From positions 64,001-128,000 of IMG/VR virus record IMGVR_UViG_3300033146_004399: a DNA stretch of 64,000 nt; one strand, 5' to 3'. Shown piece by piece: positions 144 through 40,299 of the stretch. This stretch comes from a virus. Every line of letters begins with the position of its first letter. Position 1 is the first letter of the stretch. A program made the position numbers and the translations under genes. The notes under the pieces are model-generated. The model ran no database searches. It saw only the letters and a list, made by a program, of their open reading frames with translations, and was not told the DNA's origin.

Positions 144-290
144 ATGAAACAAGTTAAACTTTCTTCAGAAGAATGGGATCAAATGATTGAAGATTATCAG
201 AACGGTGAAACTAAAAATATTATGATACTAAAATATAAACTCAATACCATTCAATATAAAACTTTACGTAAACATTTTATAGGACGGTAA
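144..290 (+). CDS. Small hypothetical protein (48 aa)
   Basis: Hand-translated ATG144..TAA290, MKQVKLSSEEWDQMIEDYQNG...; not in the ORF track. Confidence 0.45.
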   Translation: MKQVKLSSEEWDQMIEDYQNGETKNIMILKYKLNTIQYKTLRKHFIGR

Positions 291-291
291 A

Positions 292-768
292 TTAATAAAG
301 TATATTTTCTGGATGCCACTCAGATACAAAATATGGATAATAATCATCTATATTATCAGTTCCAGCTTGCAATAAAAGTTTATTACTCTTCTTACAATAC
401 AATTTCAATATATCACAATTCTCATCATTATTTGTCCCAAAATACTTAGCTACAACTTCTATAGGTTGGAAGGTATTTTTAACTTGATAAGTTTCTACAA
501 TGAGATGACGCATAGAACTTCTATATCCATCACCAGGATCTTCAACAACACTATAAGTAACTCCATCTAATATAAATGAGAACACTTGTGAGTTTTCAAA
601 ATCATTACTATAATTACTTTTTATTTGTGTTGTATCTCTATCAACGCCTGTGAGAGTAAATTCGCCTACTAAATCATTAAGTTCCATTTTAAGAGTACCA
701 TTAGATAGAAGACGTTTTGCTATTTCTGAGTGGTTAAACATATTATAAACTATGCTAAAATTGCACAT
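292..768 (-). CDS. Hypothetical phage protein (likely start ATG at 687, MELNDLVGEF...)
   Basis: ORF track; no recognisable motif. Confidence 0.6.
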   Translation of the reverse strand: MCNFSIVYNMFNHSEIAKRLLSNGTLKMELNDLVGEFTLTGVDRDTTQIKSNYSNDFENSQVFSFILDGVTYSVVEDPGDGYRSSMRHLIVETYQVKNTFQPIEVVAKYFGTNNDENCDILKLYCKKSNKLLLQAGTDNIDDYYPYFVSEWHPENILY

Positions 769-824
769 TTAAGTAAATTTAAGTAAGATAATTTTATGAA
801 TGATTTTATAAAGAGCGAGCAACT

Positions 825-1931
825 ATGATTAAAGCAATTAAGCTTTATAATTTAAACAAATCAATAATTGTTAATGACATTAAAATAATTGAAACAGAAT
901 ACAGATTAAAAAAATTTAAAACGTTATTAATCAATAAAGAATATAAACTAATACAAAGAGATAAAATAACATTTATATGTGACGAGTGTAAAAGAGAATT
1001 TGAAGAAAAATTTGCTTTTAATAAAAAGTTTTTTGGATTAAAACAAAATTGTAGGACTTGCGATATATCAAAAACAAAGTTGATAAAATATGGTTCTAAA
1101 AATGGTTTTTCTCAAATAGAAAAAAGTGTTATGAATAAATATGGGGTTAAGAGTGTTTTTCAGTTAGATTTTGTTAAAAAGAAAATTGAAAAAACATTTA
1201 TAAAAAGATATAACGCTAAGAATAATTTTGGACGGTTTGAAGTTAGAAAAAAATTATATAATAAAGATGGCAGTTATAAAAATAATAGAAATAGAGCTAA
1301 AATGACTAATATTAAAAAATATGGCGTCGAAAATGTATCCCAGCTTAAAGAAATAAAAGAAAAAAAGAAAAAAACATGTTTAAAAAATTATGGAGTCGAG
1401 AATATATTTCAAGATAGAATTTTAATGGAAAAACTAATGTTTGCTAAATATGGCGTAAAACACCCGCTTGAATCAAAAATGATAAAAAACAAAATGAAAC
1501 AAAATTTTTTAAAACATTGGGGTGTGGAATATCCTGGTCAACATCCAGAAATTCACAAAAAGCAAATGCATTCTTTTAAAAATAAAACATCTGTTAAAAT
1601 TATAAATAATAATTTATATTACCAAACTAAGCCTGAATTAGAATACATTGTATATTGTCAAAATAATAACATTGATATATATAATGGGCCTTCTGTACCA
1701 TATATGTTTGAAGGTAAAAAACATATTTATCATATAGATTTTGAAACTGATAAATATGTAGTGGAAATTAAAGCATCTCATATATGGTATAAACAAAATC
1801 TAGTTTCGGGTAAGATAGAGGCTAAAAATAAAGCAGCTAAAAAATATGCAACATCTATAAATAAAGAATTTCTCTTTTTATTAGATGTTAAAGATTATAA
1901 AAAATATATGGAGAATTATAATGTCAGATAA
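825..1931 (+). CDS. Putative homing-type endonuclease with KYGVxN repeats and C-terminal PD-(D/E)XK-like domain
   Basis: CxxC pairs; repeated KYGV(E)N(V/I)xQ units; C-terminal YHIDFETDKYVVEIK (D..ExK). Confidence 0.65.
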   Translation: MIKAIKLYNLNKSIIVNDIKIIETEYRLKKFKTLLINKEYKLIQRDKITFICDECKREFEEKFAFNKKFFGLKQNCRTCDISKTKLIKYGSKNGFSQIEKSVMNKYGVKSVFQLDFVKKKIEKTFIKRYNAKNNFGRFEVRKKLYNKDGSYKNNRNRAKMTNIKKYGVENVSQLKEIKEKKKKTCLKNYGVENIFQDRILMEKLMFAKYGVKHPLESKMIKNKMKQNFLKHWGVEYPGQHPEIHKKQMHSFKNKTSVKIINNNLYYQTKPELEYIVYCQNNNIDIYNGPSVPYMFEGKKHIYHIDFETDKYVVEIKASHIWYKQNLVSGKIEAKNKAAKKYATSINKEFLFLLDVKDYKKYMENYNVR

Positions 1932-2322
1932 AGAACTAGAGGTTGTAGATGAAGCTTCACCAATGGATTTAGCTATTACACAAATGAATGAAATTGCTGC
2001 GGTTGTCGTTGAAAATATAGTTGACGATAGGGATAAAGCTGATGAATTATACGATTTCATGTGTTCAGAAATTGATATTAACGGAGATAAAAATCCTGCA
2101 ACCAGAGAAGCTATGTCTAAAGCCATGGAACTTAAAATGAAAGGGTCCGATCAAATGATTGAACTTCTTAAAGTTAAGGCTAAACTTATTAATCCTAATA
2201 AAGGTTTAAACGTTAACATTTCTTTGGGTAAATTTTCTGATAATAAAGGTGGAAATACAAGTGCTATGATTGATGTAGTTGAAAATATACAATATGAAAT
2301 CGACAATGAAGACAATGATTAA
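1921..2322 (+). CDS. Hypothetical helical protein
   Basis: ORF 1885..2322; GGAG RBS before ATG1921. Confidence 0.6.
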   Translation: MSDKELEVVDEASPMDLAITQMNEIAAVVVENIVDDRDKADELYDFMCSEIDINGDKNPATREAMSKAMELKMKGSDQMIELLKVKAKLINPNKGLNVNISLGKFSDNKGGNTSAMIDVVENIQYEIDNEDND

Positions 2323-11663: not shown

Positions 11664-11695
11664 AAAAAGGAGTTTATATTATAAGCTCCTTTTTT
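11664..11695. terminator. Bidirectional terminator between convergent genes
   Basis: AAAAAGGAGTTTAT-att-ATAAGCTCCTTTTTT. Confidence 0.75.
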
Positions 11696-12783
11696 AATAC
11701 GTCTTTAATATTTTCATTATATTTTATTCTAATTAATTTTATATTATTATCTAAACAATATTGATTTTTAATTTTATCATTTTGTTGTATATATTTAAAA
11801 CCTTCTTCTCCGCCAAAAAAATCTATAGGTTCATAATGTTGTTTTCCATCGTATTCTATTAAAAGCTTATCATGTATATAAAAATCAAATGGAAGAGGAA
11901 GAATATTTTTACAGTCATTAAATCTTTTTTGTCTTATATATTGTATATTTTTATTATCTAAATAATGAGCTATTGCTTTTTCACCTTTTGATTCATTGCA
12001 TACCGGGCAACCTGTGTCACCATAAATATGATTTCTTGCTATTTGTTCAAATACTCCATGAATAGGACATATTATTTTAATTTTTTCTCTACCTATTGTA
12101 TATTTAGAAAGAGAGTAGTTATATTTATTACTATGTATTAATTTTGCTTTTTTTATAAATTTTTTTGTATCAATTCTGCTTTTCAATCTATAACATTTAT
12201 CACAACCTGCTCCATTTAAATGCGCAGGCGGGATTTGTTCAAATATTCCATGTTCTGGACATATTATTTTAACCTTGGTATTTGCATTAATATAACTAAC
12301 TAAAGAATAGTTATATTTACTACCATGTATTTGTTTAGCTGTAGTAATAAATTTTTCTTTAGTAAATGATTTTATACTTTTTATATAATTATGTTGACAT
12401 TTAATGCATCCTTTGCCACTTAAATGCGCATCTGGTCTTTGCTCAAATGTTCCGTGGATAGGACATATTATTTTAATTTTAGTTTTATTGTTTATATATT
12501 CAACCAAAGAATAATCATATTTATTGTCATGTTTTTTAGAAGCTTGTTTTATAAAAGTTTCAAGTGTTTTAGTTTTAAATTCTGTTCGTTTTCTTATACC
12601 ACATTTTTTACATCCTCTATTGTGTAAATGATTTTTGGGTGTTTGTGCAAATATACCGTGTTCAGGACATATTATTTTAACTTTAGTTTTATTATTTATA
12701 TATTCTACTAAAGAATAATCATATTTATTATTATGCACAATATTAGCTTCTTCTATAAATTCATTTAGCGACTTTCTCCCCAT
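11674..12783 (-). CDS. Zn-ribbon repeat (x4) endonuclease, paralog of 2323..3231
   Basis: 4 KYDYS/CPxHG/CxxC repeats, then ESKGEKAIA..LPFDF..LIEYDGKQH; likely start 12783. Confidence 0.8.
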   Translation of the reverse strand: MGRKSLNEFIEEANIVHNNKYDYSLVEYINNKTKVKIICPEHGIFAQTPKNHLHNRGCKKCGIRKRTEFKTKTLETFIKQASKKHDNKYDYSLVEYINNKTKIKIICPIHGTFEQRPDAHLSGKGCIKCQHNYIKSIKSFTKEKFITTAKQIHGSKYNYSLVSYINANTKVKIICPEHGIFEQIPPAHLNGAGCDKCYRLKSRIDTKKFIKKAKLIHSNKYNYSLSKYTIGREKIKIICPIHGVFEQIARNHIYGDTGCPVCNESKGEKAIAHYLDNKNIQYIRQKRFNDCKNILPLPFDFYIHDKLLIEYDGKQHYEPIDFFGGEEGFKYIQQNDKIKNQYCLDNNIKLIRIKYNENIKDVLKKELII

Positions 12784-12878
12784 ACATTTAATTATGCTTT
12801 TATACAATAAAAGCAAGACTATTGGTAATAAATAACTTAAGATAATTAAATATAACGAAATATAAGGAGAAATTAATT

Positions 12879-13845: not shown

Positions 13846-14571
13846 ATGGGCAAAATTTTAACAACTGAAGAATTTATAAAAAGAGCTAAAGAGGTGCACA
13901 GTAATAAGTATGATTATTCAAAAACAAAGTATAAATTAGCCAGAGAAAAAATTGATATAATATGCCCAATTCATGGTTCTTTTAAACAACAGCCAAATCA
14001 TCATCTGAAGGGACACGGATGTGAAAAATGTGGTCATGTTAAGACTTCAAGTCATCATACGAAAACTGTTCAATATTTCATAAAAAAAGCTAAAAGAATA
14101 CATAATAATAAATATGATTATTCTTTGGTTGAATACATAAACAATAAAACTAAAGTTAAAATAATATGTCTAAAACATGGTATATTTGTTCAAACACCAG
14201 ATAATCATTATAAAGGTAAGGGTTGCCCAGTTTGTAAAGAGAGTAAAGGTGAAAAGGCTATAGCCCATTATTTAGACAATAAAAACATACAATATATAAG
14301 GGAACACAGATTCGATAATTGTAAAAATATTCAAGCGCTACCATTTGATTTTTATCTTCCTGAATATAATATATTAATAGAGTTTGATGGAATACAGCAT
14401 TTCTCCTCAAATTTTTTTGGTGGAGAAAACGGTTTAAAATATCGAAAACAAAATGATAAAATTAAAAATCAATATTGCATAAATAATAATATTAAGCTAA
14501 TACGGATAAAATATAATGAAGATATAAATTTAATATTAAACACGTTGGTCAGTACGAATACCTGTTTATAA
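13846..14571 (+). CDS. Zn-ribbon repeat (x2) endonuclease, paralog
   Basis: 2 repeats, then ESKGEKAIA..LPFDFYLP..LIEFDGIQH. Confidence 0.8.
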   Translation: MGKILTTEEFIKRAKEVHSNKYDYSKTKYKLAREKIDIICPIHGSFKQQPNHHLKGHGCEKCGHVKTSSHHTKTVQYFIKKAKRIHNNKYDYSLVEYINNKTKVKIICLKHGIFVQTPDNHYKGKGCPVCKESKGEKAIAHYLDNKNIQYIREHRFDNCKNIQALPFDFYLPEYNILIEFDGIQHFSSNFFGGENGLKYRKQNDKIKNQYCINNNIKLIRIKYNEDINLILNTLVSTNTCL

Positions 14572-14678: not shown

Positions 14679-17600
14679 ATGCCGAGATTAAGATCGGAGC
14701 AGATTCAAAATTTAACATTAACTAACGCCCAAATAGGTGATGGTTATACATATGATGCTAATGGCGTCCAAATTGCTGGGTTTGATCCTACAAGATTAAT
14801 AGATCAGCAAAAAATTAAAGATTTAGAATTTCAACCTAATGGTTGGATTTCTCGTGGTATTGTAAATAAAGTAGATGTTTTGCCGGAATGGACAGCAGAC
14901 CTAGAAGGTCGTCTTTTTTATATTGATAGTACTGACCAATTATACTTAGGTATAGGAACAGAACCATGGTTTATATTAATAAGTGGTGATCAGGCTTCAG
15001 GATGGGATGCTGAACTTACAACCCGTATGGGATCAGATGGTACAAATTGGAATGGTACAATGGCTACACAGTTTCAGACTCTCTCTTATACATTTGCAGC
15101 TGATGGTTCAGATTTGTTTGTATATGTCAATGGTTCATTACAAAGATTAGATCATGATTTTGAAATTGTAGATGAAAGAACTATTAGAACTTTACGAAAT
15201 CTAAATGCTAATGACGTAGTAACTATGTTGGTTATTTTATCCAACTCAATGTTAAATTACGCAACTAAAGCTTGGGTATTTGAAAAAATACAGGCTGGTG
15301 GTATTAATCATTCTCTCGATGCTGCTTATGATGACGGAGCAGTGGTAAGCGTTGATTCTCGAGATGTAGATTGGAGATTAGCTCAAGATACTAAATTTAT
15401 AGTAAGTGAAGCTATATCTGGTATAGCTCTTCCTGCTACACATTTAGGTACTAAAGATATAACATCAGGTCACAATTGGCAAACAAGATGGCAAACATTT
15501 GATGTCGTATTAACTAATGCTGGTACAGTTACTGGACCCAAAACGGTAACCTTAAACAATCCAACAGTAACACTTGCAGAAGTAGCAACAGAAATTAGTG
15601 AAGCTTTAGTTACAGCTGGTATTTCAAATTTATATGGTTTTGGTGATACTGGCTTTGCAGGTCTTCAATCAACTGTAGTAGGTAATGACATATCTTTTAC
15701 TCTTGCATCTGGGTCGAATGCACTTCCAATTTTTGGTCTTGCACCACAAGTAGTATTGGGTGATGATGCTTATTCATCTTACCATGAGTTTGGTTTAGAT
15801 GTAGACGCATCTAGTGATGCAGGCCTTGAAGCTGGAGAAAAATTTTGGTTTTCAGTAAATGGAACAGAATATTTTATTACAACTGGTGCCAACGCAACAT
15901 ATGACCAAGTACGTTCTTCAATTGATACAGTATTAGATATTTCGGGGTTTGCAGCCTCAACTGAAGGCGTTTCACCTAATCAAGATATTCGCGTGACAAC
16001 TGATTTAGTTGGATTAGCTAATCCAACAGTGTTAGCTGATATCAATTATGCTGGACAAATTGAAATTACTCAAGTAACTACAGTAGCTGACGTTAATAGA
16101 TCTTTAGATGGTAAATATTTTGCTATTAATTCTATTGATGCTAATCTTTTTGGACATGAAAAACCTTACTATGTTTGGTATCATATTGATGCTGAGCAAG
16201 AAGTAAGTACCATAACTACTACAGCTGAAGATTCAAATGTTACTCTTGCAGGTTCATATTTTGATCTTCATTCACCTACAACAGATTATTTTGTATGGTT
16301 TGAGGTAGAAACACCAGTGTCTGCTGGTTATCAAGAACTTGGTTTGTCAGCACTTAATGCTGGAACAACTACTGGTTTAACAGAGAATACAACTTATTAT
16401 TTTAAGGTTGCAGTGGATGGGCAAGCTCAGCAAGAGTTTAACATCACAACAGCTCCAGATATTCAACCGGTTGCGGAAATTACAGATGTAACTTTCCCTG
16501 CTGATGTTGCTCAAACATATTCTGGTAGGTATTGGGAATTAAATTCACAAACAGGTTCTGGTTATTATGTATGGTATAATATAGATACAGCTGCTGGATC
16601 AGAAGTTACTGATGTAACAACTGTTGCAGACACAGCGCAATCTCTTTCGGGGTTACAGTTTGATATACATACTCCTAGTCAACAATATTATGCATGGCTT
16701 TCTATGATGACCGATCCAGGTCTTCCAGAATTAGCAGAAACTACAGATATAACTACTGTCGCTGATGTTGCACAATCTCTTTCTGGTTCAACATTTTATA
16801 TAAATTCTGCGGATGGTTCACCATACTATGTGTGGTATGAAATGATTACAGATCCTGGTGCTGCTGCAGTTGGTGAAATATCTGAAATAGTAACTGTTGC
16901 AGATAGTGGTCAATCTCTTTCTGGTAAATATTTTGAAGTAAGTACAATAAGTACAGATTATTATGGTTGGTACAGAATGTTGGTTGCCGGTCCTGTCGTT
17001 GGCCAAGAAGAAATTACAGAAATAACAACCGTTAGTGATGCTGCTAAATCTCTTTCCGGAACTTATTGGACATTTAATACTCCTTATAACGAATATTATG
17101 TTTGGAACAGAATGGAATTGACTGCCGCAGAACCTGCTACTGCTGAAGAAAGTACAGCTACTTTTAATTCAAATGTTGTCGGCGATTACGCTGGTCAATA
17201 TATTACAATCCATAATTTTACAACAGCTTATGATATTTGGTTTGATACAACTGGTAGTGATACAGCGCCGGCTGGAGCGATTTCAAATCCAATTGTTGCT
17301 GATATTTCTGGGGCTGCGGATGCAACTGCTATAGCTCTTATTGTAGTTAACGCGGTTAAAGCTGCCACAACAATGTTTTCAACTTCATCGTCTACAGGTG
17401 CTACTATAACATTTGTTGAAGATAACGCTGGTGCTCAGAACAATTCTGCAGACGGTTCAAATGCTGCAGACGTTGACGTTGCAACTTCAGTAACTGGTGC
17501 AGACTATGTTGTTGCTACTTATTCTACAGACCCTGCTCCTGCTTCAAAAACTGGTGTTCAGATTAATGTTGCTGAGAATGATGCTAATACAGTGATTGCT

Positions 17601-20600
17601 TCTGCTATAAATACTCAAATTAATCTTCTTGGTGATGTATCATCTTCAGTACTTGGTGCTGTTATAACAATAACAAATGATGATATTGGTGCTGTTGCAG
17701 ATGCTGTTGATGTTGATTCTGGTTTCTCTACAAATGTAACACAACAAGGTATTTCATCTGCTCCTGCTACTTATTCCACAGACCCTGCAGTCGTTGGTAA
17801 AACGGGAATACAAATTAATATTGCTGAAGATGATAGCGCTGATGCTGTTGCATCTGCAACACAAACGGTATTAGACGGCATGGCTCAGTTTGATGCTGGT
17901 GTTGTTAATAATACTGTAACAATTACTGCTACTACTTCTGGTGCTACGGCTGATGCTACTGCAGGTAATTCTGGTTTTGCGGTTTCAACTACGCAACAAG
18001 GTTCAGATTATATTGCCCCTACTTATTCTACGGATCCTGCACCTGCTTCAAAAACTGGTATTAAAGTTGTAATAGCTGAAGATGATATTGCTGCCGATGT
18101 TGCAGAAGCAACACGAACTGCTATTGATTTACTTGGAAGTTTTAGTGCTACAAGATCAAACAGCACTATTACTATTATTGATGCTACAACTGGTCCTGTT
18201 ACTGATGCTGTTGATATTGATACAGGTTTTGCGATTTCTGTAACTCAACAGGGTCAAGATTATATTGCTCCTACTTATACAACTGAACCCGCTGGTACAG
18301 GCATTGGTATTAAAGTTGATATAGTGGAAAATGATACAAATATAGCAGTTGCTCAAGCTGTCGAGGCTGCATTTAATGGAACAGTTGGTTTTTCAGCTAC
18401 TCGTACAAATGAAACAGTAACTATAACAAATGATGTTGGTGGAGTTGCAACTAACGCAGCAGCTTCAAACTCTGGTTTTACAATTAATATCGTTGAACAA
18501 GGTTATGAAGCTTATAGTTCTACAGACCCTGCTATTATTGGCCGTACTAGTTTACAAGTTAACATAATTGAAAACGATACAGCAGACGCAATTGCTGCAA
18601 AAACTTCTACTGTTATTAACGCTTCAGCACATTTTTCATCTAGTGCTTCTAATGATACGGTAACAATTATTGATGCTAATGGCGGTGCTGTTACAGATGC
18701 TGTTAATGTTGACATTCCTGCTGGTTTTTCGGTTAATGTTTCTACTCCTGGTGTAGATTTTATATCTGCCGATGTTTCTTGGGGACAAATTCTTACATTA
18801 TTAAATGTTTCTACAACATCAGCTGCAACCTGGGCGTTTAATAATGGTGATATTAGACTTACTTCTGATACTATTGGTTCTTGGACTGCTATATCGTTAG
18901 CTGCTGGCACTACTGGAAATGATTTTTTCAGTTCTGTGAATGATTTTGTATCTTTTGATGCTGAAATTCCTGGTGTCTCTTCTTATTCTGCTCAACCTGC
19001 TGGCGTAGGTACTCCTATTAAAGTGCCTGTACTCGTTGGTGCAAACGCTGTTAATGTTGCTTCTTCGATACAAACTGCTGTTGATACTGAAGGTGATTTC
19101 AATGCTGCTGTTGGTGTAAATGTGGGTGTTGATGATCACATTATAACAGTTACAAATGTTGCTACTGGTTTTGTTACAGATATTGCAGATCATGGTACTG
19201 CTTTTGGGCTTACTGTTTTTAATCAAGGTGCTAACGAGTCTACAGACCCAGTTGGTATAGGTACTGGTATTCAGGTTGATATCAATAAAGATGATAGTGC
19301 AACTGATGTTGCAACAAAAACACAAGCGGCTGTTGACTCTGATGGTGAATTTTACGTTACCAGATTAGATGCTGTTCTTTCAGTACAAAATGATTTCTCT
19401 GGTGCTGTTACACTTGCTGCTGATGTTGATTCTGGTTTTGCTTTTACACGGACTGGTCTTGGTGAAGATGTTAAATATGGTATTTTTAGTGCTAATGGTT
19501 TAAACATAACACTTCCTGCAGCTGTTGATGGTATTGATGCTGTTCCAGCGTCTATCGCTGTTGGTACTGCTGATTTATCTGGTGGTTATAATTTTTACAC
19601 ATTTCCTAAAGACTTCGCAGTTGTTATTAGCGGTGAACCTTTAGTTGAAGTTTTCCTAGATGAAGCAGCTTATAATGCAAGTGAAGTAGTTAGTAAAGCA
19701 AATACAAAAATAGCTGATGCTGGTATTACAAATCTTGAAGCTTATCAAGAAGCTGGACATATAGGTTTTAGAACACTTCTTACTGGTTTAGCTCAAAGTC
19801 TTGATCTTAGAGATTCATTATCTGATGCTCTTGTGACTCTTGGTTGGACAGCAGGTATTTATTCCGGTACGTTAGGTCCTGCAGATTCTATCTTTCAAGT
19901 TGACGCTCTTGCATCTGGTAATGAAATTAGATTTGATGCTGATGTTTTACCTCTTGCAACCGGTACAAATAACATTGGTTCTGAAGATTATAAAGTTAAA
20001 GAAATTTGGGCTCAAGATGCTCACTTTGATGCCGGTACAATTTATATTGGTAATGCAAAAATATCAGAAGAAACTAATGAATTTGCCTTTACTGTTGATG
20101 ATGGTGTTAATGAATGGGATCATTTTGGTAATACAAACTCCGCTATTGCTCCTGTTGGTGCTGACAGAATTGGTGTTGCTGGTGTTGTCGGTGTTATTCC
20201 TGAAATCAGTGGTGGCAGTGCTGCTCCTGGTGATCCTGGTACTCTTCAAGAAATGCTTACTGGTTTTGCTAAAAGCGCTGGTGGTGTAAAAGTATTTCCT
20301 GATATGGGAACAACAACTGGTACATACGGCGATCCAACTAATCTTAAAGGTTTTTTACTTGAAAAAGCTGCTGGTCTCTATTTAAAAGTTGGTGAAATTG
20401 TATATATTAAAGACATTAACCGTTCAGTTATGGTACTCTTGCAAGGAACCGGTGTGGTTGAAGATTTCGACTGGACATACTTAGAAGGTGCTGTTCATGC
20501 TGTTGGTGGAGAGAGCATTAAATATGACTTAACTGCACTTGATGCTAATGGTGCTCCTACTACTGGTACTCTTCCAGTTGATTCCTTTTATGTTAAAACT

Positions 20601-21152
20601 ACTGGTGGTATTAAATTAGAAGTAGGGGAAAATGGAGAAGCTGTATCGATAACAGATAATAATGTAAGTGGTATAGCATTATTAGGTCCAGGAACCTCAG
20701 GCTCTAAAATTGATAATTTTGAAAAAGTATATAATGCTGTATGGAATGATATTGCCGACTTTATAGAAGTTGAAGCTGGAATCGAATTAGAGTTTGGTAA
20801 AGTATACACTCGTAAAGCAGATGGTACTCATGGTATCTCTTCTACATATATGGAGAAAGGTATATTAGGTCTTGCCTCTGATACGTACGGTTTTGGTGTT
20901 GGTAAGAAAGATAATGCTGTTGGAACTCAAATTCCTGTAGCTATCGGCGGTATTGTACTTGCTCATGTTAAAGAAGAATACGAACCCGGTACTGCATTAA
21001 CATGTGGTCCTAACGGTATTCTCATGGAATTTAAACTTGAAGATAAGAGAAACTTCCCTGAAAGAATAATCGCTACATATTATAAGCCCGAAGTCAGTGA
21101 AGAATGGAATGGTATTACTGTTGATGGAAGACATTGGGTAAAGATTAAATAA
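14679..21152 (+). CDS. Giant tail fibre/adhesin (2157 aa) with nested split repeats and a probable C-terminal intramolecular chaperone domain
   Basis: A/T/D/G/S/V-rich; 7+1+7 internal repeats; C-terminal WNDIADFIE..GILGLASDTYGF..VAIGG resembles autocleaving chaperone domains of trimeric fibres. Confidence 0.8.
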   Translation: MPRLRSEQIQNLTLTNAQIGDGYTYDANGVQIAGFDPTRLIDQQKIKDLEFQPNGWISRGIVNKVDVLPEWTADLEGRLFYIDSTDQLYLGIGTEPWFILISGDQASGWDAELTTRMGSDGTNWNGTMATQFQTLSYTFAADGSDLFVYVNGSLQRLDHDFEIVDERTIRTLRNLNANDVVTMLVILSNSMLNYATKAWVFEKIQAGGINHSLDAAYDDGAVVSVDSRDVDWRLAQDTKFIVSEAISGIALPATHLGTKDITSGHNWQTRWQTFDVVLTNAGTVTGPKTVTLNNPTVTLAEVATEISEALVTAGISNLYGFGDTGFAGLQSTVVGNDISFTLASGSNALPIFGLAPQVVLGDDAYSSYHEFGLDVDASSDAGLEAGEKFWFSVNGTEYFITTGANATYDQVRSSIDTVLDISGFAASTEGVSPNQDIRVTTDLVGLANPTVLADINYAGQIEITQVTTVADVNRSLDGKYFAINSIDANLFGHEKPYYVWYHIDAEQEVSTITTTAEDSNVTLAGSYFDLHSPTTDYFVWFEVETPVSAGYQELGLSALNAGTTTGLTENTTYYFKVAVDGQAQQEFNITTAPDIQPVAEITDVTFPADVAQTYSGRYWELNSQTGSGYYVWYNIDTAAGSEVTDVTTVADTAQSLSGLQFDIHTPSQQYYAWLSMMTDPGLPELAETTDITTVADVAQSLSGSTFYINSADGSPYYVWYEMITDPGAAAVGEISEIVTVADSGQSLSGKYFEVSTISTDYYGWYRMLVAGPVVGQEEITEITTVSDAAKSLSGTYWTFNTPYNEYYVWNRMELTAAEPATAEESTATFNSNVVGDYAGQYITIHNFTTAYDIWFDTTGSDTAPAGAISNPIVADISGAADATAIALIVVNAVKAATTMFSTSSSTGATITFVEDNAGAQNNSADGSNAADVDVATSVTGADYVVATYSTDPAPASKTGVQINVAENDANTVIASAINTQINLLGDVSSSVLGAVITITNDDIGAVADAVDVDSGFSTNVTQQGISSAPATYSTDPAVVGKTGIQINIAEDDSADAVASATQTVLDGMAQFDAGVVNNTVTITATTSGATADATAGNSGFAVSTTQQGSDYIAPTYSTDPAPASKTGIKVVIAEDDIAADVAEATRTAIDLLGSFSATRSNSTITIIDATTGPVTDAVDIDTGFAISVTQQGQDYIAPTYTTEPAGTGIGIKVDIVENDTNIAVAQAVEAAFNGTVGFSATRTNETVTITNDVGGVATNAAASNSGFTINIVEQGYEAYSSTDPAIIGRTSLQVNIIENDTADAIAAKTSTVINASAHFSSSASNDTVTIIDANGGAVTDAVNVDIPAGFSVNVSTPGVDFISADVSWGQILTLLNVSTTSAATWAFNNGDIRLTSDTIGSWTAISLAAGTTGNDFFSSVNDFVSFDAEIPGVSSYSAQPAGVGTPIKVPVLVGANAVNVASSIQTAVDTEGDFNAAVGVNVGVDDHIITVTNVATGFVTDIADHGTAFGLTVFNQGANESTDPVGIGTGIQVDINKDDSATDVATKTQAAVDSDGEFYVTRLDAVLSVQNDFSGAVTLAADVDSGFAFTRTGLGEDVKYGIFSANGLNITLPAAVDGIDAVPASIAVGTADLSGGYNFYTFPKDFAVVISGEPLVEVFLDEAAYNASEVVSKANTKIADAGITNLEAYQEAGHIGFRTLLTGLAQSLDLRDSLSDALVTLGWTAGIYSGTLGPADSIFQVDALASGNEIRFDADVLPLATGTNNIGSEDYKVKEIWAQDAHFDAGTIYIGNAKISEETNEFAFTVDDGVNEWDHFGNTNSAIAPVGADRIGVAGVVGVIPEISGGSAAPGDPGTLQEMLTGFAKSAGGVKVFPDMGTTTGTYGDPTNLKGFLLEKAAGLYLKVGEIVYIKDINRSVMVLLQGTGVVEDFDWTYLEGAVHAVGGESIKYDLTALDANGAPTTGTLPVDSFYVKTTGGIKLEVGENGEAVSITDNNVSGIALLGPGTSGSKIDNFEKVYNAVWNDIADFIEVEAGIELEFGKVYTRKADGTHGISSTYMEKGILGLASDTYGFGVGKKDNAVGTQIPVAIGGIVLAHVKEEYEPGTALTCGPNGILMEFKLEDKRNFPERIIATYYKPEVSEEWNGITVDGRHWVKIK

Positions 21153-33018: not shown

Positions 33019-33504
33019 ATGGATAAAAAAGAAATTGTACCCGGTATAACATTAAGTGATATTTTAAACGACAACGTAAAAGTACCTGCTACAGACACTA
33101 CTACAATAAATTATGCTTTAGTTGAATTGGCTGCTACAAACATTAAATTAACCAAGGATCAGACCGCTAATTTTTGGTTGTATATTGATACTCTAGATTT
33201 ACTCGATTGGCTTTTTTTAATGAGTGCTATAGCTTCTGCTAGTGTAACGTCCTGTTCTATGAAGAATCCATCTTTTATTGATAATTTACTTGATGCGTCA
33301 ATACCACATTGCGATATTATTATTAGTCTTTCAAATAAAAATCCAGAGCGTTTTAAGAAAAAAATAAAAGAAGTATATAATAAAGATCTTACACTTGATG
33401 AGGTTGATATGTTGATACATATTTATAAATATGAAAAAGATGGCAAGTTATATCCTGACTTAAAGAAAAATCCATATTATAAGCAACTTGGACAACCCAC
33501 CTAA
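33019..33504 (+). CDS. Hypothetical protein
   Basis: 161-aa ORF. Confidence 0.6.
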   Translation: MDKKEIVPGITLSDILNDNVKVPATDTTTINYALVELAATNIKLTKDQTANFWLYIDTLDLLDWLFLMSAIASASVTSCSMKNPSFIDNLLDASIPHCDIIISLSNKNPERFKKKIKEVYNKDLTLDEVDMLIHIYKYEKDGKLYPDLKKNPYYKQLGQPT

Positions 33505-33515
33505 TATGGTATAAT
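33488..33515 (+). promoter_or_regulatory. Promoter TTGGAC-N16-TATAAT
   Basis: TTGGAC 33488-93, TATAAT 33510-15. Confidence 0.7.
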
Positions 33516-33532
33516 TGTTGTAAGAGGTAAAT

Positions 33533-33787
33533 ATGTATTTGAAACAGAAAATGAGTTATTTTGAGAAGAGGATTAAAAGTCTTAAATTTGTTATAGTTGT
33601 TAACATTATAGGTGTTTTATTTTGTTTAACAGCATTTGTTACAAATTTAATATCAGGCCATTCTTTTTGGTGTTTAATCCAATTAGCTTTTGTATTATTA
33701 AACAGTTGGTTATTATTTAATAATGTTAAGTCATTGAATAAGACAAAACTAGACTTCACTAAAAACTTACTTAGATACGGGGAGTAA
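33533..33787 (+). CDS. Small membrane protein
   Basis: 84 aa, two hydrophobic segments, GAGG RBS. Confidence 0.6.
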   Translation: MYLKQKMSYFEKRIKSLKFVIVVNIIGVLFCLTAFVTNLISGHSFWCLIQLAFVLLNSWLLFNNVKSLNKTKLDFTKNLLRYGE

Positions 33788-33943
33788 AATAATTATAAAT
33801 ATTGTTGCTGTTATTTCTTGCAGTGTGGCATTAGTTTTTCATATTATGGTTAATAATATGATATGGAGTATTATACTTAGTATATTACTTATTGCTATAG
33901 TCGCATGGGTTAATATGAGACTCCAAAAAAATAAAAAATAATT

Positions 33944-33983
33944 TTGGATATAGAAGCAAATATGTTATAATTATTATAGTAAT
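33944..33983 (+). promoter_or_regulatory. Promoter TTGGAT-N16-TATAAT with overlapping near-palindrome ATTATTATAGTAAT
   Basis: -10 at 33966-71; palindrome at 33970-83. Confidence 0.65.
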
Positions 33984-34005
33984 TGAGGTTTTAATATATC
34001 AAGGA

Positions 34006-34971
34006 GTGAATATGGAGAGGAAAATATTATTTAAGGTAAAAAGTGGATCTCATATGTATGGTCTTAATACTCCCGAAAGTGATGAAGACTATATGGGTAT
34101 ATTCATGCCTACATCCGAAGATTTATTAGGTCTTAATAAATTAGAAGAAATAGATAATTCTACTAAATCATCTAAAGAAGATCGACGTAATACTAAAGAA
34201 GATGTAGATGAAAAACTTTATTCACTTAAGAAATATCTTCATCTCGCATTACAGAATAACCCTAATATAGTAGAAGTTTTATTTTCCTCTCCTGAATCAA
34301 TTATAGAAATGACTCCTGTGTTTCAGGAGTTGATAGATAATAGAGATAAAATAGTCTCACAGAAAATATATTATTCATTTACGGGATATGCATTTGCTCA
34401 AAGAAAGAAACTCATAGTTAAGAAGGAAAGATATACTTCACTTGTAGAAGGCGTTAAATTTCTAGAAACCGTGTATAAAGATAAACTTGGTAGTAAGTAT
34501 CCCATTAAAGATGAAGACGCAGATGCTTTAAACACAAGTTTAAAATATTATAAAGGAAAAAAGAATAATACTGAATCTTTCCATAGAGGTATGGATCTAG
34601 ATATGATTATAGAAAAACTCAGAGCTGAAAGAGATAGATATGGCTGGAGAGTTAATACCTCAACTTTTGAAAAATTATTTTATGATGTAAAATTTGCCTA
34701 TCATTTGATCAGATTATTAGGGCAGGGAGAACAGTTATTAGAAACTGGTAAAATTGATTTTCCAATAACTGGAAAATTAAAAGATGATATAATGCGAATA
34801 AGAAATGGTGAAGTTGAGTACGACGAATTAATGAAGATGTATGAGACTTATAATAAAAGGTGTGATGTAGCATTTGAAAATACTAAGTTGAGGAAAACTC
34901 CTGATTTCAAATGGGCTAATAAATGGTTGATTAAAATTCTTAAGGAGAGTATTATAAATGAAGAAGAGTAA
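34006..34971 (+). CDS. Predicted nucleotidyltransferase (Pol-beta superfamily)
   Basis: SGSHMYGLNTPESDEDYMGIF (GS..DxD); NPNIVEVLF; YHLIRLL. Confidence 0.88.
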   Translation: MNMERKILFKVKSGSHMYGLNTPESDEDYMGIFMPTSEDLLGLNKLEEIDNSTKSSKEDRRNTKEDVDEKLYSLKKYLHLALQNNPNIVEVLFSSPESIIEMTPVFQELIDNRDKIVSQKIYYSFTGYAFAQRKKLIVKKERYTSLVEGVKFLETVYKDKLGSKYPIKDEDADALNTSLKYYKGKKNNTESFHRGMDLDMIIEKLRAERDRYGWRVNTSTFEKLFYDVKFAYHLIRLLGQGEQLLETGKIDFPITGKLKDDIMRIRNGEVEYDELMKMYETYNKRCDVAFENTKLRKTPDFKWANKWLIKILKESIINEEE

Positions 34972-35269
34972 AAATCTTGGCAATGTTTTCTATGATATAG
35001 ATGGAATGCTTTTGGATGATTTGATTAAATGGGCGGAAAAACAAAAAGAATTTCATCCTGAGTATGATTCTTTTAAATTAGAATTCGAAAAAGAATATCA
35101 CTACGATGGGGAATATACTGCTTTAAATCTTTATGGTCTTAGAGAAGAAACCAAAGAAGAGGAAAAATCTCGAGAAGCTATTAGGATTAAGAAATTGGAT
35201 GATGCTAAAGCAAAAAGAAAAAAGGAATGGGATAGATTGAATAAGGAGTTTGGGAATGAAGAGACATAG
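34958..35269 (+). CDS. Hypothetical protein
   Basis: 103-aa ORF. Confidence 0.6.
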   Translation: MKKSKNLGNVFYDIDGMLLDDLIKWAEKQKEFHPEYDSFKLEFEKEYHYDGEYTALNLYGLREETKEEEKSREAIRIKKLDDAKAKRKKEWDRLNKEFGNEET

Positions 35270-35450
35270 ATTATTCACAAGAAGAGAAGTTATAGAAATA
35301 TGGTTAAAGCAGAAAGATGAAGATTTAGATACTTATGTTTGTCCTCACTGTAGAGATCTTCTGTTTAAGAAAGGTGAAACTTATTTTTGTAATAATTTTG
35401 ATTGTAGTTATTATGGAGAGACTATTGAACTAATTGGAGAAGAAGAATGA
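35250..35450 (+). CDS. Small Zn-finger protein (CPxC..FCNNxDC)
   Basis: Paralog of 35447..35629. Confidence 0.65.
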   Translation: MGMKRHRLFTRREVIEIWLKQKDEDLDTYVCPHCRDLLFKKGETYFCNNFDCSYYGETIELIGEEE

Positions 35451-35629
35451 TAAAAGCTAAATTGCTCACATTAAGAGAATTAGGCATAGTTGATAATGAT
35501 AAGGATTTAGATAGTAAAGTCTGTCCTATGTGTAAGAATATACTTCGTAAGAAGAATGGTGTTTACTTCTGTAACAATTTAGAATGTGATGGGTATAGAG
35601 AAGGATTCGAGGAGATTAAAAATGAATAA
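35447..35629 (+). CDS. Small Zn-finger protein (CPxC..FCNNxEC)
   Basis: Paralog of 35250..35450. Confidence 0.65.
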   Translation: MIKAKLLTLRELGIVDNDKDLDSKVCPMCKNILRKKNGVYFCNNLECDGYREGFEEIKNE

Positions 35630-35975
35630 GGGTGCAATTGCATTCATTATTATTTTAGTATTTATTCTTGGACTGGTGTTAGGTGCTTTATTTATTAGTG
35701 TGTCGCTTAGTTCTAATAGCCATAGAGTTCATACTGTCAGAATAAATGATTTCGTAAATATTAAAGTTTATACAAACTCATATTATGATTTATATAAACT
35801 TAAACGATATATATCAAATATGGAGAATTTCGTTTATACAAATGATAATATGATTATACTAACTAAAACAATACATGACAGATTTATATCTGTTGCAAAT
35901 ATTAGATTTTATAAATTTGATGGTACTTATTATGATACTTGGGGGCGATATACAAAAAACGTATCTGAAGAGTAG
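35622..35975 (+). CDS. Membrane-anchored hypothetical protein; TAG stop followed by 38 open codons
   Basis: GGAG RBS before ATG35622; readthrough frame open to TGA 36090-92. Confidence 0.6.
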   Translation: MNKGAIAFIIILVFILGLVLGALFISVSLSSNSHRVHTVRINDFVNIKVYTNSYYDLYKLKRYISNMENFVYTNDNMIILTKTIHDRFISVANIRFYKFDGTYYDTWGRYTKNVSEE

Positions 35976-36148
35976 AGAAGGTTAACCTCACCATCCCTAA
36001 CTCAATGGTTTATTCAAACATGGAAATGTATAAGAGGGAAGCATATTTGGATTGTGAGTGATATAGTTGAAAACGATGAAAATAATAAGTGAGTTTAAAA
36101 AATGCGAATATTGCGGAGAGTATAAACTCTTATAATATAGGTGGTAAA

Positions 36149-36622
36149 ATGAATAATGTAGATAAATTAGTAAAAGAAGTTGAGGCTAATGAAAAAGCGT
36201 TGAAACATACTAAAGAAGAAGTTGCTGATGCTATTATGAAAATATATACTTCTTATATATATTCTATTAATAAACAGTTACGTACCTTCTTTGGAAGAAG
36301 AAGAAAAATAGGTAAATTTACTATTAAAAGCAAATGGATAGGCGTAAATGAATATAATGATGGGTATCCTTTAATTAAGGTGTATTACAGAAAAAGACTT
36401 ATATTAAAAGTAAGTGGTAGAGAAAATGGTAATGCTAATACTTGGAAAGATGCTAAATTTAGATTACGTCACGTTTATAAACTTGATATGTCTAAAATTG
36501 TTGAACTTCAAACATTTCACAATATTTTAATTACGTTAACCCAGGAACAATTACATATAAAAAATGAAAAAATAAATAAGTTGAATAATTTTCAATTAGC
36601 GTTAAAGGAGTTGGAAGTATGA
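36149..36622 (+). CDS. Hypothetical protein
   Basis: Track 36089..36622; AGGTGG RBS before ATG36149. Confidence 0.6.
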   Translation: MNNVDKLVKEVEANEKALKHTKEEVADAIMKIYTSYIYSINKQLRTFFGRRRKIGKFTIKSKWIGVNEYNDGYPLIKVYYRKRLILKVSGRENGNANTWKDAKFRLRHVYKLDMSKIVELQTFHNILITLTQEQLHIKNEKINKLNNFQLALKELEV

Positions 36623-36752
36623 TATTTGCAGTTAAATATAGAAGAGCGCAAACAGCTGAATTAATTACAGCAGATAACTATAGAGGAAAATGGACCTTTC
36701 TTAGAGAATGGTTTCAATCTAACAAAGTAGCTAAAGATATACTGGAGGAAAA

Positions 36753-37178
36753 ATGAGTTGGACGGATAGATGGTACAATGCTGAATATGCTAATTTAACT
36801 CCTATAGGACGAGTGGTTTTAACTCTTATAATTATAGGTTTATTTTTACTCCCTTTACTAATTTTTGGACCAATAGAAATAATTGATATGGAATCAGGAC
36901 CAGTATCAATATTCCTTGGTAATTTTATGACTGTTTTAGTAGCTACAGTAGTTGTAATAATAAGTATTGTAATTATATTTTTAATTTGGATGTTTGTGTC
37001 ATGGATTTTAACTGGTCGTTCTGGTATTAATAGTTTAAACTTTTTTTTGGTAGAGAAGCCGTGGGATTTTACAGCTACTTTATTTAGAGTATTCTTTGGC
37101 TCCTATAGAAATAAGTGGCTTTTCCTTCATGAAATATTATACCCAAATAAAATAGCAAAGGAGATGCTAGATGAATAA
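36753..37178 (+). CDS. Membrane protein
   Basis: Two hydrophobic segments; GGAGG RBS. Confidence 0.65.
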   Translation: MSWTDRWYNAEYANLTPIGRVVLTLIIIGLFLLPLLIFGPIEIIDMESGPVSIFLGNFMTVLVATVVVIISIVIIFLIWMFVSWILTGRSGINSLNFFLVEKPWDFTATLFRVFFGSYRNKWLFLHEILYPNKIAKEMLDE

Positions 37179-37356
37179 CTTAAGAGTTAAAAGTTTTATA
37201 GCTTCCTATTATCAAGACGGTTGGAAAGAAGGTGTTGAGATTCTTGATACGGAAATTAATGCATAGATGATAGAATACTCAAATATAATAGTAGATAGAA
37301 TAGAACATATTAAGTTTGAAACACATGAAATAGTTCATATTTGGTATACTATATGA
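37171..37356 (+). pseudogene. 61-codon ORF with in-frame TAG (37264-66)
   Basis: MNNLRVKSF...LDTEINA*MIEYSNIIVDRIEH...WYTI; coupled to both neighbours. Confidence 0.65.
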
Positions 37357-37637
37357 TTGAAAATGAAGAAGCTAAAAATAATTTATTAGGATATACTGTA
37401 ATAAATATGAATGATAGGGTCGAGGTTCGTTTAACAGATAGGGGAAGATATATATTTTCACATAGGAATGATGACTTAAATCAATTAGGCATAGCACATT
37501 TTCCACAGGATAAACCTAAAGAGGTAGACGGCTGGTTTAAATGTCAGCTATGGGAATTGATGCAAACATTCGGCCCTTATATAGGTATGGGTTTTGATAC
37601 CTTATTTGAAACAACAATAAGAATAAAGCATAATTAA
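37341..37637 (+). CDS. Hypothetical protein
   Basis: 98-aa ORF. Confidence 0.6.
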   Translation: MVYYMIENEEAKNNLLGYTVINMNDRVEVRLTDRGRYIFSHRNDDLNQLGIAHFPQDKPKEVDGWFKCQLWELMQTFGPYIGMGFDTLFETTIRIKHN

Positions 37638-37685
37638 TATAAAGAAGTATAATATGTTACATGATATATGGGTCTTTTTACTGAG

Positions 37686-37877
37686 ATGTATGGGTTTATA
37701 TGGTTTATAGTTTTTATAATTATAATAGAGATTTTGTCCCTTCCATTTCGAGCTATATTATCCTAGATTAAAATAAATAATAAAAGACTTTTGATAGAAA
37801 GTTTAGTCAATAAAGGTTATACCCTTGAAGATATAAATAAGATAATATTAATAATGGACGGTAACGATGACGAATGA
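37686..37877 (+). pseudogene. Membrane ORF with in-frame TAG (37764-66)
   Basis: MYGFIWFIVFIIIIEILSLPFRAILS*IKINNKRLL...DDE. Confidence 0.55.
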
Positions 37878-38184
37878 GAAGAAAGAGAAAATAACAAATT
37901 GTGAGTTAGACCAAACAGGTAGATTAAAAATGCTTGTATCTATCCTACTCTTCGTTTTTATTGATGTAGGGATATTCGTAGCCCTCTTCTATACTGGTAA
38001 TTCAGATTTTCCATTTATGTGGATATTATCACAATTTGTTATTGTATTTATTCTTCCCTTCTTTGTAAATTTATTTCTACTTACTAAGGTATGGGTAAAG
38101 ACTGGAAAATTTATTCCTTATCTTGACATTTTTGATAAAATTGAATTTATAAAAAAATATCTTTTCGGAGACTGGAGAAAATAA
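37867..38184 (+). CDS. Membrane protein
   Basis: Two hydrophobic segments. Confidence 0.6.
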   Translation: MTNEKKEKITNCELDQTGRLKMLVSILLFVFIDVGIFVALFYTGNSDFPFMWILSQFVIVFILPFFVNLFLLTKVWVKTGKFIPYLDIFDKIEFIKKYLFGDWRK

Positions 38185-39102
38185 TTGAATCCTCATAAAA
38201 TTTTAGGTGTTGAACCCGGTGCTAACGCAAACGACATAAAGAAAGCTTATAAGTCTTTAGCTAAAAAATATCATCCGGACGCTAACGGTGGTGATGACAC
38301 TAAATTCAAAGAAATAAGTCATGCATATGAAATATTAACCGATCCTAAAGCTAAAGCTCAATATGAGTCAGAACAATTTAAAAAAACTGCTAATTCTTTT
38401 GGCGGAATGGGTGGTATGGATTTTGGGGATATATTTAGAAGTTTTTCTCAAGGTTCTAACGGTTTTTCTCAAGGGCCTGGCGGGTTTAGATTTACTTATG
38501 GTGATACTAAAAGGAAAATACACGGAAAAGATATCCAAGTTAGAATTTTTATCACTCTTGAAGAGGTTTTTAACGGTAAAACCATTGAAATGGAAATACA
38601 GCGTAACGAGAGAATAAATTCTGAGAAGAGAGAAGTAAGAAGCAGGAAGATAAAACTTAATATACCAAAAGGTGTTGAAAACGGAAAAGTTTTACATCTC
38701 CGTGGTGAAGGACATCAAGGATTAAATGGTGGACGAGATGGTAACGTAAATATAATAATTCAAACTAAACCACATGATTATTTCTGGAAGAAAAAAGATG
38801 GTCTTTATACTCAAGTTGAGATTTTCTTTACTCAAGCTATTCTCGGGGCAACTGTTGAATTTCTTAATTTAAATAGTGAAATAGTAGAATTGGTAATACC
38901 TCCAGGAACGCAGCCAGGAGATATAATAGAATTGAGAGGTGAAGGCGTGCCTTTTACGGGAAGTGATACTCGAGGATATCTTAAAGTTATTATAAAAGTT
39001 AAACTTCCAACTCAATTAGAATCTTACCAAAAAGAAAATTTAAGAATATTCCAGGAGCAATTCAATATAAAACCTATTGCTTCCTCAGTTAAAATAAAAT
39101 GA
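38185..39102 (+). CDS. dnaJ: DnaJ-family co-chaperone (class B, no Zn finger)
   Basis: J domain with HPD; G/F region; C-terminal IPKGV..G..L.L.GEG and IPPGTQPG. Confidence 0.92.
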   Translation: MNPHKILGVEPGANANDIKKAYKSLAKKYHPDANGGDDTKFKEISHAYEILTDPKAKAQYESEQFKKTANSFGGMGGMDFGDIFRSFSQGSNGFSQGPGGFRFTYGDTKRKIHGKDIQVRIFITLEEVFNGKTIEMEIQRNERINSEKREVRSRKIKLNIPKGVENGKVLHLRGEGHQGLNGGRDGNVNIIIQTKPHDYFWKKKDGLYTQVEIFFTQAILGATVEFLNLNSEIVELVIPPGTQPGDIIELRGEGVPFTGSDTRGYLKVIIKVKLPTQLESYQKENLRIFQEQFNIKPIASSVKIK

Positions 39103-39391
39103 GAAAATTAGTTGATAATTATATTGTTTTAAATAAATCTTTCAAAGAAGAATTTTATAAACTTATTCAAGACTTCATAAATAGAAATATACTACTCAAC
39201 AATATATTTATATATTTCATCTTTTAAAAATTGTGCAGCAAACTGATAAAAAGGTAGTTAAATATTTATAATGCAAGGCGTGGAAAAGTATACTCATGAA
39301 ACTAAAAATTTAACTATACAAGATTTTATAAAAGCGGGTGAAATAATTGATAGGAAAGTATTAAAAGAATTAAGTGCTGAACTTGCTAAAT

Positions 39392-39631
39392 TTATGCTTC
39401 AAAGATAAATCTAATCCAGTCTACATTAGGTTCAACTTCAACTTTTAGTTCGCTAAAGTAGAAAGGTATTGGTGATTCAGATTCATCATACCATACAGCA
39501 GTAACATCATCTTGGAAGTAAACATCGTCTAATTTATGTTTTCCAATAACAACACGTTTCGCCCACTTCCATGTCCTAACATAATCTAAACCAGCGTCCT
39601 GTAAGAGATCAAAAAATTCGTTATAGTCCAT
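39392..39631 (-). CDS. Hypothetical protein
   Basis: 79-aa ORF in a coupled minus-strand trio. Confidence 0.55.
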   Translation of the reverse strand: MDYNEFFDLLQDAGLDYVRTWKWAKRVVIGKHKLDDVYFQDDVTAVWYDESESPIPFYFSELKVEVEPNVDWIRFIFEA

Positions 39632-40007
39632 TTGTTGTTATCCACATATTAAAGTCTTCATATTCATAAGCATCAAACTTTCTCATCTCTTCATACTTAA
39701 ATCCTATTAAATCTAAAATCCATATAAGAACTGAGGCATAAGTATCATCAACTGCAATCACACTAAAGTCACTGTCACTTTTTTGTGTTACATTTAATGA
39801 ATATGCATTTTTTAAATTAGTTAATCTTTTCATTCCCTTTGCTCCGTCCATATCCATACTATATTTAAAAAAAGATGCTCCCCAAGAGGCTGGAAGCCAA
39901 TGGTCATAATCATAAGGATCAAAATCTCCAGAGAAATAATTTTTTAAAAGGGTGGAAAATTCATCATTTATGAATAATTCTTTTATTGCTCTTTTACTTA
40001 CTTTCAT
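39621..40007 (-). CDS. Hypothetical protein
   Basis: 128-aa ORF. Confidence 0.6.
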   Translation of the reverse strand: MKVSKRAIKELFINDEFSTLLKNYFSGDFDPYDYDHWLPASWGASFFKYSMDMDGAKGMKRLTNLKNAYSLNVTQKSDSDFSVIAVDDTYASVLIWILDLIGFKYEEMRKFDAYEYEDFNMWITTNGL

Positions 40008-40267: not shown

Positions 40268-40299
40268 AATATTATCTTACTTACTATACAAGATAAATT

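Follow-up and report, generated by a model that had tools for sequence, protein, structure and literature searches.

The DNA examined here is a window of 64,000 nucleotides (positions 64,001 to 128,000 of the IMG/VR record IMGVR_UViG_3300033146_004399), and the gene under study encodes P0001, a giant putative virion-surface protein of 2157 amino acids (aa). The source record comprises 179,366 bases with a G+C content of ~30% and covers ~63% of the genome of an uncultured phage. Chunked self-BLAST of P0001 revealed two repeat families with E values down to 1e-16, one with a period of ~45 aa (aa 455-820) and the other with a period of ~84 aa (aa 930-1600). When the unit boundaries were set by alignment and hidden Markov models (HMMs), eight units of the first type (A) and eight of the second type (B) were found in mirror order, counting those of the core, in which an A and a B unit form a single contiguous domain (Table 1). 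A previous sequence-only reading of the window had proposed seven first halves, one intact core, and seven second halves; self-BLAST, alignment, and HMMs all bear out this layout, with coordinates that differ by no more than ~10 nucleotides. The repeat unit is an alpha/beta domain of ~125 residues with one long helix, to which A contributes three to four strands and B contributes a strand, the helix, and then several strands. The insertion point is the domain's own A|B loop, directly after the YYVW strand. We consider it very probable that aa 459-1598 are one recursive nest of domain insertions, A1(A2(X1(A3(A4(A5(A6(A7(core)B7)B6)B5)B4)B3)X2)B2)B1, where X is a second domain type that is itself split.

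Table 1. Features at the P0001 locus, with positions in the window and residues of P0001 (or protein length)
Feature	Position	Residues	Strand	Basis or remark
Whole gene P0001, giant putative virion-surface protein	14679..21152	2157 aa	+	
Intact X-type domain	15762..16052	aa 362-458	+	Directly upstream of the proposed nest; collinear alignment with X1+X2, z 8.9
A1, A2: first halves of the two outermost AB domains	16053..16325	aa 459-505, 506-549	+	Self-BLAST, alignment, HMM
X1: first half of split X, between A2 and A3	16326..16469	aa 550-597	+	Alignment
A3-A7: first halves	16470..17144	aa 598-640, 641-686, 687-732, 733-776, 777-822	+	Self-BLAST, alignment, HMM; AlphaFold
Core: single contiguous A+B domain	17145..17516	aa 823-946	+	Alignment, HMM
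B7-B3: second halves	17517..18770	aa 947-1030, 1031-1114, 1115-1198, 1199-1278, 1279-1364	+	Self-BLAST, alignment, HMM
X2: second half of split X, between B3 and B2	18771..18980	aa 1365-1434	+	Alignment
B2, B1: second halves of the two outermost AB domains	18981..19472	aa 1435-1519, 1520-1598	+	Alignment, HMM
C-terminal module common to P0001 and the 2300-aa paralogue	20157..20582	aa 1827-1968	+	44% identity, E 1e-24
Upstream nest-flanking domain	15465-15761	aa ~262-362		
Downstream nest-flanking domain	19473-19800	aa ~1599-1710		
Site of large length differences among orthologues	20600-20720	aa ~1987-2003		P0001 and P0004 lack a segment found in the others
HNH/homing endonuclease gene	11674..12816		-	phrog_559, E 6e-97
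HNH/homing endonuclease gene	13846..14571		+	phrog_559, E 6e-67
Open reading frame inside the P0001 gene	18512..18910	132 aa	-	
Open reading frame inside the P0001 gene	18897..19325	142 aa	-	

The two X segments of P0001 are separated by 767 residues. The claim that a second domain is split at the mirror position was confirmed by joining them: X1+X2 aligned as one domain not only with the intact X-type domain upstream of the nest but also, end to end, with the contiguous X of the relative P0137 (score 284, z 36.5). The join lies between ITTAPDIQP and DVSW, and P0137 reads ITTA-GDVTW at this place. In the alignment of single-AB proteins, the order in P0137 is A, whole X, B; in P0122 it is X1, whole AB, X2, with the same insertion point. 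Thus, both domain types can host and be hosted. In P0001, the A2|B2 loop contains X, which in turn carries levels 3 to 8, so that the eight AB levels proposed from the sequence are retained and the total rises to nine once X is counted.

The linkers are in line with this arrangement. Expressed as residues beyond the profile on the outgoing and the returning side, they were (5,0) four times, then (1,-3) and (-1,-5), with (51,70) at the X step, and these residue counts substantiate the earlier claim that linker lengths co-vary in mirror register within P0001. A TDPG motif is conserved in the outgoing linkers of A4 and A5, as is STDPA in the return linkers; the single loop of contiguous domains reads YYVW..TDPA. 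This match to the single loop fits growth of the nest by duplication of "A plus loop" and "loop plus B" or by insertion with loop duplication. Since no tandem repeat was found at the DNA level in the gene, the units are old and diverged. Five orthologues from separate metagenomes, with 52-59% identity, have the same layout without any indel of at least 10 residues inside the nest, and therefore the layout is not an assembly artefact. Among the six proteins, the length variation, which amounts to up to ~230 residues, was all located near aa 1796, 1930, and 1987-2003, the last being the site listed in Table 1. From the sequences, it looks as though the C-terminal region is variable and the nest fixed.

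The two segments that flank a domain insertion are recognized by forming one domain that is contiguous elsewhere, and this was found for AB as well as for X. In un-nested relatives, A is always followed by B. The distant relatives P0007 and P0008 have A directly followed by B, in tandem, and tandem ABAB.. proteins were found as well. A second giant protein of the same phage (2300 aa; L009 481..7383 on the minus strand, corresponding to G000:C1 ~33480-40382, outside the window) contains one intact AB domain at aa 174-309 in addition to long fibre-like repeats; it shares two other modules with P0001, an AYDDG module and a GADxVG..KVFP module. The metagenomic flagellin-like protein P0183 (423 aa) carries an intact AB domain (160-284) between Flagellin_N (6-140) and Flagellin_C (340-422), and P0166 and P0173, two metagenomic Phage_tube_2 tail tube proteins, contain one or two AB domains, either in front of the tube fold or within it. 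Since AB is contiguous in the paralogue, in P0183, and in the tube proteins, it is a portable domain that can be inserted into other proteins, and the view of A and B as halves of one domain is upheld. The AB domain of P0183 is its central variable insert, and the same module is thus present in phage virion proteins and in a bacterial flagellar protein.

Some annotations of these relatives do not concern the AB domain. The E1_FCCH domain listed for P0007 and P0008 was rejected as the identity of AB because it does not overlap their AB units. P0009 resembles two phage proteins, the "tail fiber protein" of Prochlorococcus phage P-HM2 and one from a Dolichospermum phage; both matches again fall outside AB, and the HMMs detected A or B in neither of these two proteins. 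A search of PDB sequences with a protein that has eight AB units in tandem found nothing, and neither cluster names nor gene context gave a clue to the function of a small AABB relative.

A profile of the eight B units retrieved 1638 representative proteins at an E value of ≤0.001 among 1.84 billion, and the best 150 of the 1638 were scanned with the A and B HMMs. We read each A as an opening and each B as a closing bracket and counted orthologues once (n = 152). Exactly balanced words were obtained for 104 of the 152 proteins, whereas random ordering of the units in the 106 proteins with as many A as B would yield 30. The nesting depth in the balanced proteins was 1 in 55, 2 in 24, 3 in 16, 4 in 5, 5 in 2, 7 in 1, and 8 in 1 protein; the single protein of depth 8 represents the P0001 lineage and is the deepest among the ~150 family proteins scanned. 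Small proteins of 320-1000 aa have the same domain nested to depth 2-5, and branched words such as AAABBAABBB and AAABABABABBB are also present. In pure blocks of n A units followed by m B units (n and m at least 2), n equalled m in 41 of 47 cases, a value reached by 0 of 20000 shuffles. Homologues of different nesting depth, which the sequence-only reading had suggested looking for, thus exist at depths 1 to 8. The nested order itself is generalized by the balanced-bracket rule; the architecture is not unique to P0001 and is family-wide. Four giant relatives, P0013 (2893 aa), P0014 (5471 aa), P0023 (4518 aa), and P0026 (3500 aa), have A halves ~400 residues apart or several separate nests, and may hold still more complex nests with other guest domains.

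Pairing of each half with its mirror partner was addressed by conservation and by residue couplings. The per-unit mean identity among the six orthologues correlated between the halves in mirror order with an r of 0.85, which is reached by 328 of 40320 permutations, and was anti-correlated in reversed order (r = -0.68). The core was the least conserved unit in both halves, with a mean identity of 0.44. Couplings were learnt from contiguous AB domains only, with junction columns and gaps excluded, and in a stricter version from 146 contiguous AB pairs of 55 proteins without any nesting. With the first training set, the mirror partner outscored the remaining outer B halves of the same protein, and with the un-nested set it did so in 17-23 of 26 nested proteins (Wilcoxon p 1.4e-4 to 0.014). 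Moreover, given short linkers and a non-crossing order, mirror pairing is the only possibility left.

For structure prediction, we used AlphaFold2 on aa 687-1198 (A5 A6 A7 core B7 B6 B5; 512 residues), that is, levels 5-8, with an alignment of 12 rows. The model had a mean predicted local distance difference test score (pLDDT) of 89.1 and a predicted template modelling score (pTM) of 0.51, and the A halves reached pLDDT values of 86-95. When the same construct was cut after the core (aa 687-946) and modelled with the same sequence set, the pLDDT of A5-A7 was 28-38 and residues 1-133 were all below 50; the core in this control stayed at 80-93. The A halves are therefore modelled with confidence only together with their B halves. 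Exhaustive structural alignment of the model to the PDB (model residue = aa - 686) gave small single-domain chains that aligned from model residues 83-90 to 337-342, where A7 starts at 91 and B7 ends at 344. Other small chains aligned from 43-45 to 422-431, where A6 starts at 47 and B6 ends at 428. The aligned residues numbered only 59-75 in each of these matches. In the model, A6+B6 and A7+B7 thus each appear to form one compact domain per mirror pair. The bridge pattern E--E--E recurs in the outgoing and the return linkers of the model alike, suggesting that each joint is a two-stranded connector. For levels 5-8, the model agrees with what the sequence-only reading anticipated, with A6 apparently matched to B6, A7 to B7, and A halves that need their B halves to be modelled with confidence; together with the couplings, it supports the claim that halves pair with mirror partners.

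Comparison of the core with known structures gave the protruding domain of the cyanophage A-1(L) sheath as the best match (8kee_A; Z 10.3, root mean square deviation 2.2 over 90 residues). It was followed by the PhiTE sheath (9cb9_A; Z 8.3), T4 gp11 (Z 8.1), T7-type nozzle proteins (Z 7.0-7.7), the Mu sheath (9khy_a; Z 7.6), the crAss001 capsid auxiliary protein (Z 6.8), and FliD D2/D3 together with Pseudomonas aeruginosa FliC flagellin (Z 5.6-6.6); cement proteins are also among the structural neighbours of the domain. A Foldseek search of the PDB with the four-domain model yielded only weak matches (best E 0.012). Among predicted viral structures, the same build was found in an uncharacterised Caudovirales protein (E 1.5e-21), in proteins of Rhodobacter phage RcTitan, and in baseplate J-like and sheath proteins. 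Sequence-profile matches to tail sheaths were borderline and repeated (8fop_T, E 0.012; phrog_165, E 9e-5 for P0009). As modelled, the AB fold is that of the tail sheath protruding domain, with borderline support from sequence profiles, and the comparison to tail sheaths made by the sequence-only reading is more than an analogy. P0001 as a sheath protein was nevertheless rejected, since the conserved assembly core formed by the N- and C-terminal parts of sheaths was not found in it. A search for PF04984 (sheath) in the ~63% of the genome gave nothing, nor did the Pfam scan of P0001 match any family. An immunoglobulin (Ig)-like bead array of the Hoc type was rejected as well: the units are alpha/beta, there is no Ig/BIG match in Pfam, and the best structural matches are sheath, gp11, and FliD-type domains.

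For the function of P0001, the sole hint is a weak match of aa 124-184, in an N-terminal module, to phrog_2710 "tail fiber protein" (E 0.004). Otherwise, neither the whole 2157-aa protein nor any of five pieces matched a family in Pfam and PHROG scans, deposited phages searched by tblastn contained no match to P0001 or to the AB domain of the paralogue, and a scan of viral contigs with that AB domain found no relative. The large terminase of the same genome is of the T4 type, with ≤30% identity to cultured phages. The giant gene is located near the terminase gene and does not adjoin recognised baseplate genes.

The repeats could, in principle, be two independent tandem arrays, with A (~45 aa) and B (~84 aa) as autonomous beads that were amplified separately and a mirror order that is mere coincidence. 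Both arrays do resemble ordinary tandem repeats in the self-comparison of P0001, the unit-similarity tests within P0001 alone are not significant, and some family members have unequal numbers of A and B. However, equal counts and balanced order across the family go far beyond chance, P0137 has in one piece the X that is split at mirror positions in P0001, un-nested relatives never show an A without a following B, and the pLDDT of the A units dropped from 86-95 to 28-38 without their B partners. A unit of three short strands would also be too small for an autonomous fold, and we regard this explanation as highly improbable. Halves might instead pair between chains, so that the A halves of one subunit are completed by the B halves of another (3D domain swapping in a dimer or trimer) in an extended fibre rather than a single-chain hairpin. 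Phage fibres are generally known to be oligomers, often intertwined, and the sequence tests do not separate pairing within a chain from pairing between chains. Against this stand the contiguous core, whose short A|B loop brings A7 next to the B7 of its own chain, the confident monomer model, the matching lengths of outgoing and return linkers in mirror register, and the finding of the same domain nested to depth 2-5 in small proteins and as a single insert in flagellin-like and tube proteins. Swapping between chains is thus unlikely.

A different question is what the protein does. The nest may be real in a protein other than a host-binding fibre, such as a capsid or tail decoration, a cement protein, or a stabilising strut, to which it would add bulk or rigidity. 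The structural neighbours (sheath outer domains, the crAss001 capsid auxiliary protein, cement, baseplate J-like, and nozzle proteins) would suit such a role, as would the position of the gene; moreover, Pfam and PHROG detected no receptor-binding family in P0001. The size of P0001 and the PHROG match in the N-terminal module fit a host-range protein, and so do the modules that recur in a second protein, of 2300 aa, with many fibre-like repeats, the divergence that is fastest at the presumed tip, and the C-terminal length variation among orthologues. We give a decoration or strut a real but minor chance, and "fibre" and "telescoped" are used here only as putative labels for the nest.

Several observations weigh against the recursive nest as we describe it. 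The coupling score of P0001 alone is weak, being reached by 558 of 5040 permutations. A Mantel test on unit-to-unit similarity in P0001 without the core gave an r of 0.40, reached by 655 of 5040 permutations and not significant, and the outcome of this test depends mostly on the core as an outlier. Across the family, no correlation of linker lengths was found, the co-variation being limited to the P0001 lineage. Unbalanced words make up about a third of the family (best ~150); most of them are one A short or open with a B, as expected if A, being short, is poorly detected or if contigs are truncated, and real orphan halves may be among them. The pairing in the model was deduced from where the alignments begin and end and from how far the confidence falls when the B halves are missing. 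The folded levels are 5-8 only, from an alignment of 12 rows, and with a pTM of only 0.51 the rod-like shape is a prediction. The putative role as a fibre is based on the weak PHROG match, the size of the protein, and the shared modules.

If the recursive nest is correct, a copy of the AB domain sits in the A|B loop seven times over, with one level taken by X. The chain would run out through eight first halves to the core and back through eight second halves, and each returning half would complete a domain whose first part, its mirror partner, lies up to 1014 residues back in the chain. In an out-and-back chain, both termini leave from the same end, and therefore the nest would be a projection with the core at its tip rather than a spacer between two ends. 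The nine globular domains could then form an elongated projection of the virion surface protein in which each joint is held by two strands, one outgoing and one returning, with the core at the distal tip and the N- and C-terminal modules both at the base. The core is the fastest-evolving part, as would be expected of an exposed tip that meets a variable ligand. Folding would proceed from the inside out: the core would be the first complete domain off the ribosome, and each later B half would close the next shell. A1 would wait ~1000 residues before B1 appears.

Nested domains are known from contractile tail sheaths (T4 gp18, phage 812, diffocin CD1363, and jumbo-phage sheaths), where they have been described as "Russian doll" domains (PMC6088184), and nesting of up to "five and more" domains with a returning chain has been reported (PMC9230969). 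As in the sheaths, the domains of P0001 are inserted one in another on an outgoing and a returning chain. In contrast to them, P0001 does not have a few different domains on a conserved assembly core but one domain nested in its own copies eight times plus one foreign level, and the nest lies in the middle of a fibre-like protein of 2157 aa. Flagellin and FliD, with their D0-D1-D2-D3 hairpin, also have a chain that runs out and back with outer domains inserted in inner ones; unlike P0001, they have three or four levels of unlike domains, and their base is a helical polymerisation core. We know of no repeated self-insertion in the flagellin/FliD proteins. Like the Ig-like and BIG arrays of Hoc and many fibres, P0001 presents a long array of one small repeated domain on a putative virion surface protein. 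However, those arrays have contiguous domains and single linkers, whereas all domains of the P0001 nest but one would be made from two distant segments, with two strands per joint. In the needle and tip of the T4 long tail fibre protein gp37, the chain reverses at the distal tip and returns towards the collar. That structure is an intertwined trimeric beta structure, not known to involve domain nesting, and differs from the series of globular split domains in P0001. Literature searches on recursive or nested insertion in phage fibres brought up neither the bracket pattern nor a domain nested repeatedly in itself. The principle of nesting is thus already known; what looks new is the self-insertion of one domain to depth 8 (9 with X) and the bracket pattern throughout the family.

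Some further features of the locus should be mentioned. The domains on either side of the nest are weakly similar (aa 301-335 versus 1669-1703, E 2.6e-4), and this similarity may mean that a third domain type is present there in two copies. Two HNH/homing endonuclease genes on opposite strands, immediately upstream of the giant gene, flank a 298-aa open reading frame of unknown family. The two opposite-strand open reading frames inside the giant gene are most likely spurious.

We consider it rather probable, with less confidence than for the nest itself, that phages build long projections by recursive self-insertion of one domain that is both insertable and insert-accepting, in a bracket pattern of depth 1 to 8 that is sometimes branched and mixed with X. 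Such a mode of construction, undescribed so far, would bring two-stranded joints, folding during translation from the tip inward, and changes in length only by paired gain or loss of A and B. If this is true, few known polypeptides would be nested as deeply as P0001 with its nine levels. Domain insertion is usually treated as rare, shallow (one to four levels), and mostly occurring between unlike domains. The domain of P0001 would tolerate a copy of itself in one loop repeatedly, and this would be the building rule of a mostly viral family in which 1638 representatives carry the B half. The outermost first half would pose a folding problem in having to wait for its distant partner, and evolution would have to gain paired halves without leaving orphans, which raises the question of how this is done. 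Mechanically, rods with two-stranded joints should differ from bead strings with single linkers. For annotation, such genes would look to ordinary repeat and domain finders like two tandem arrays without relation to each other, and the domain would be missed; for protein design, the AB domain would be a natural scaffold for the insertion of other domains. Finally, the family would connect sheath outer domains, flagellin-type inserts, tube decorations, and giant fibre-like proteins, all of which would employ a single portable module.

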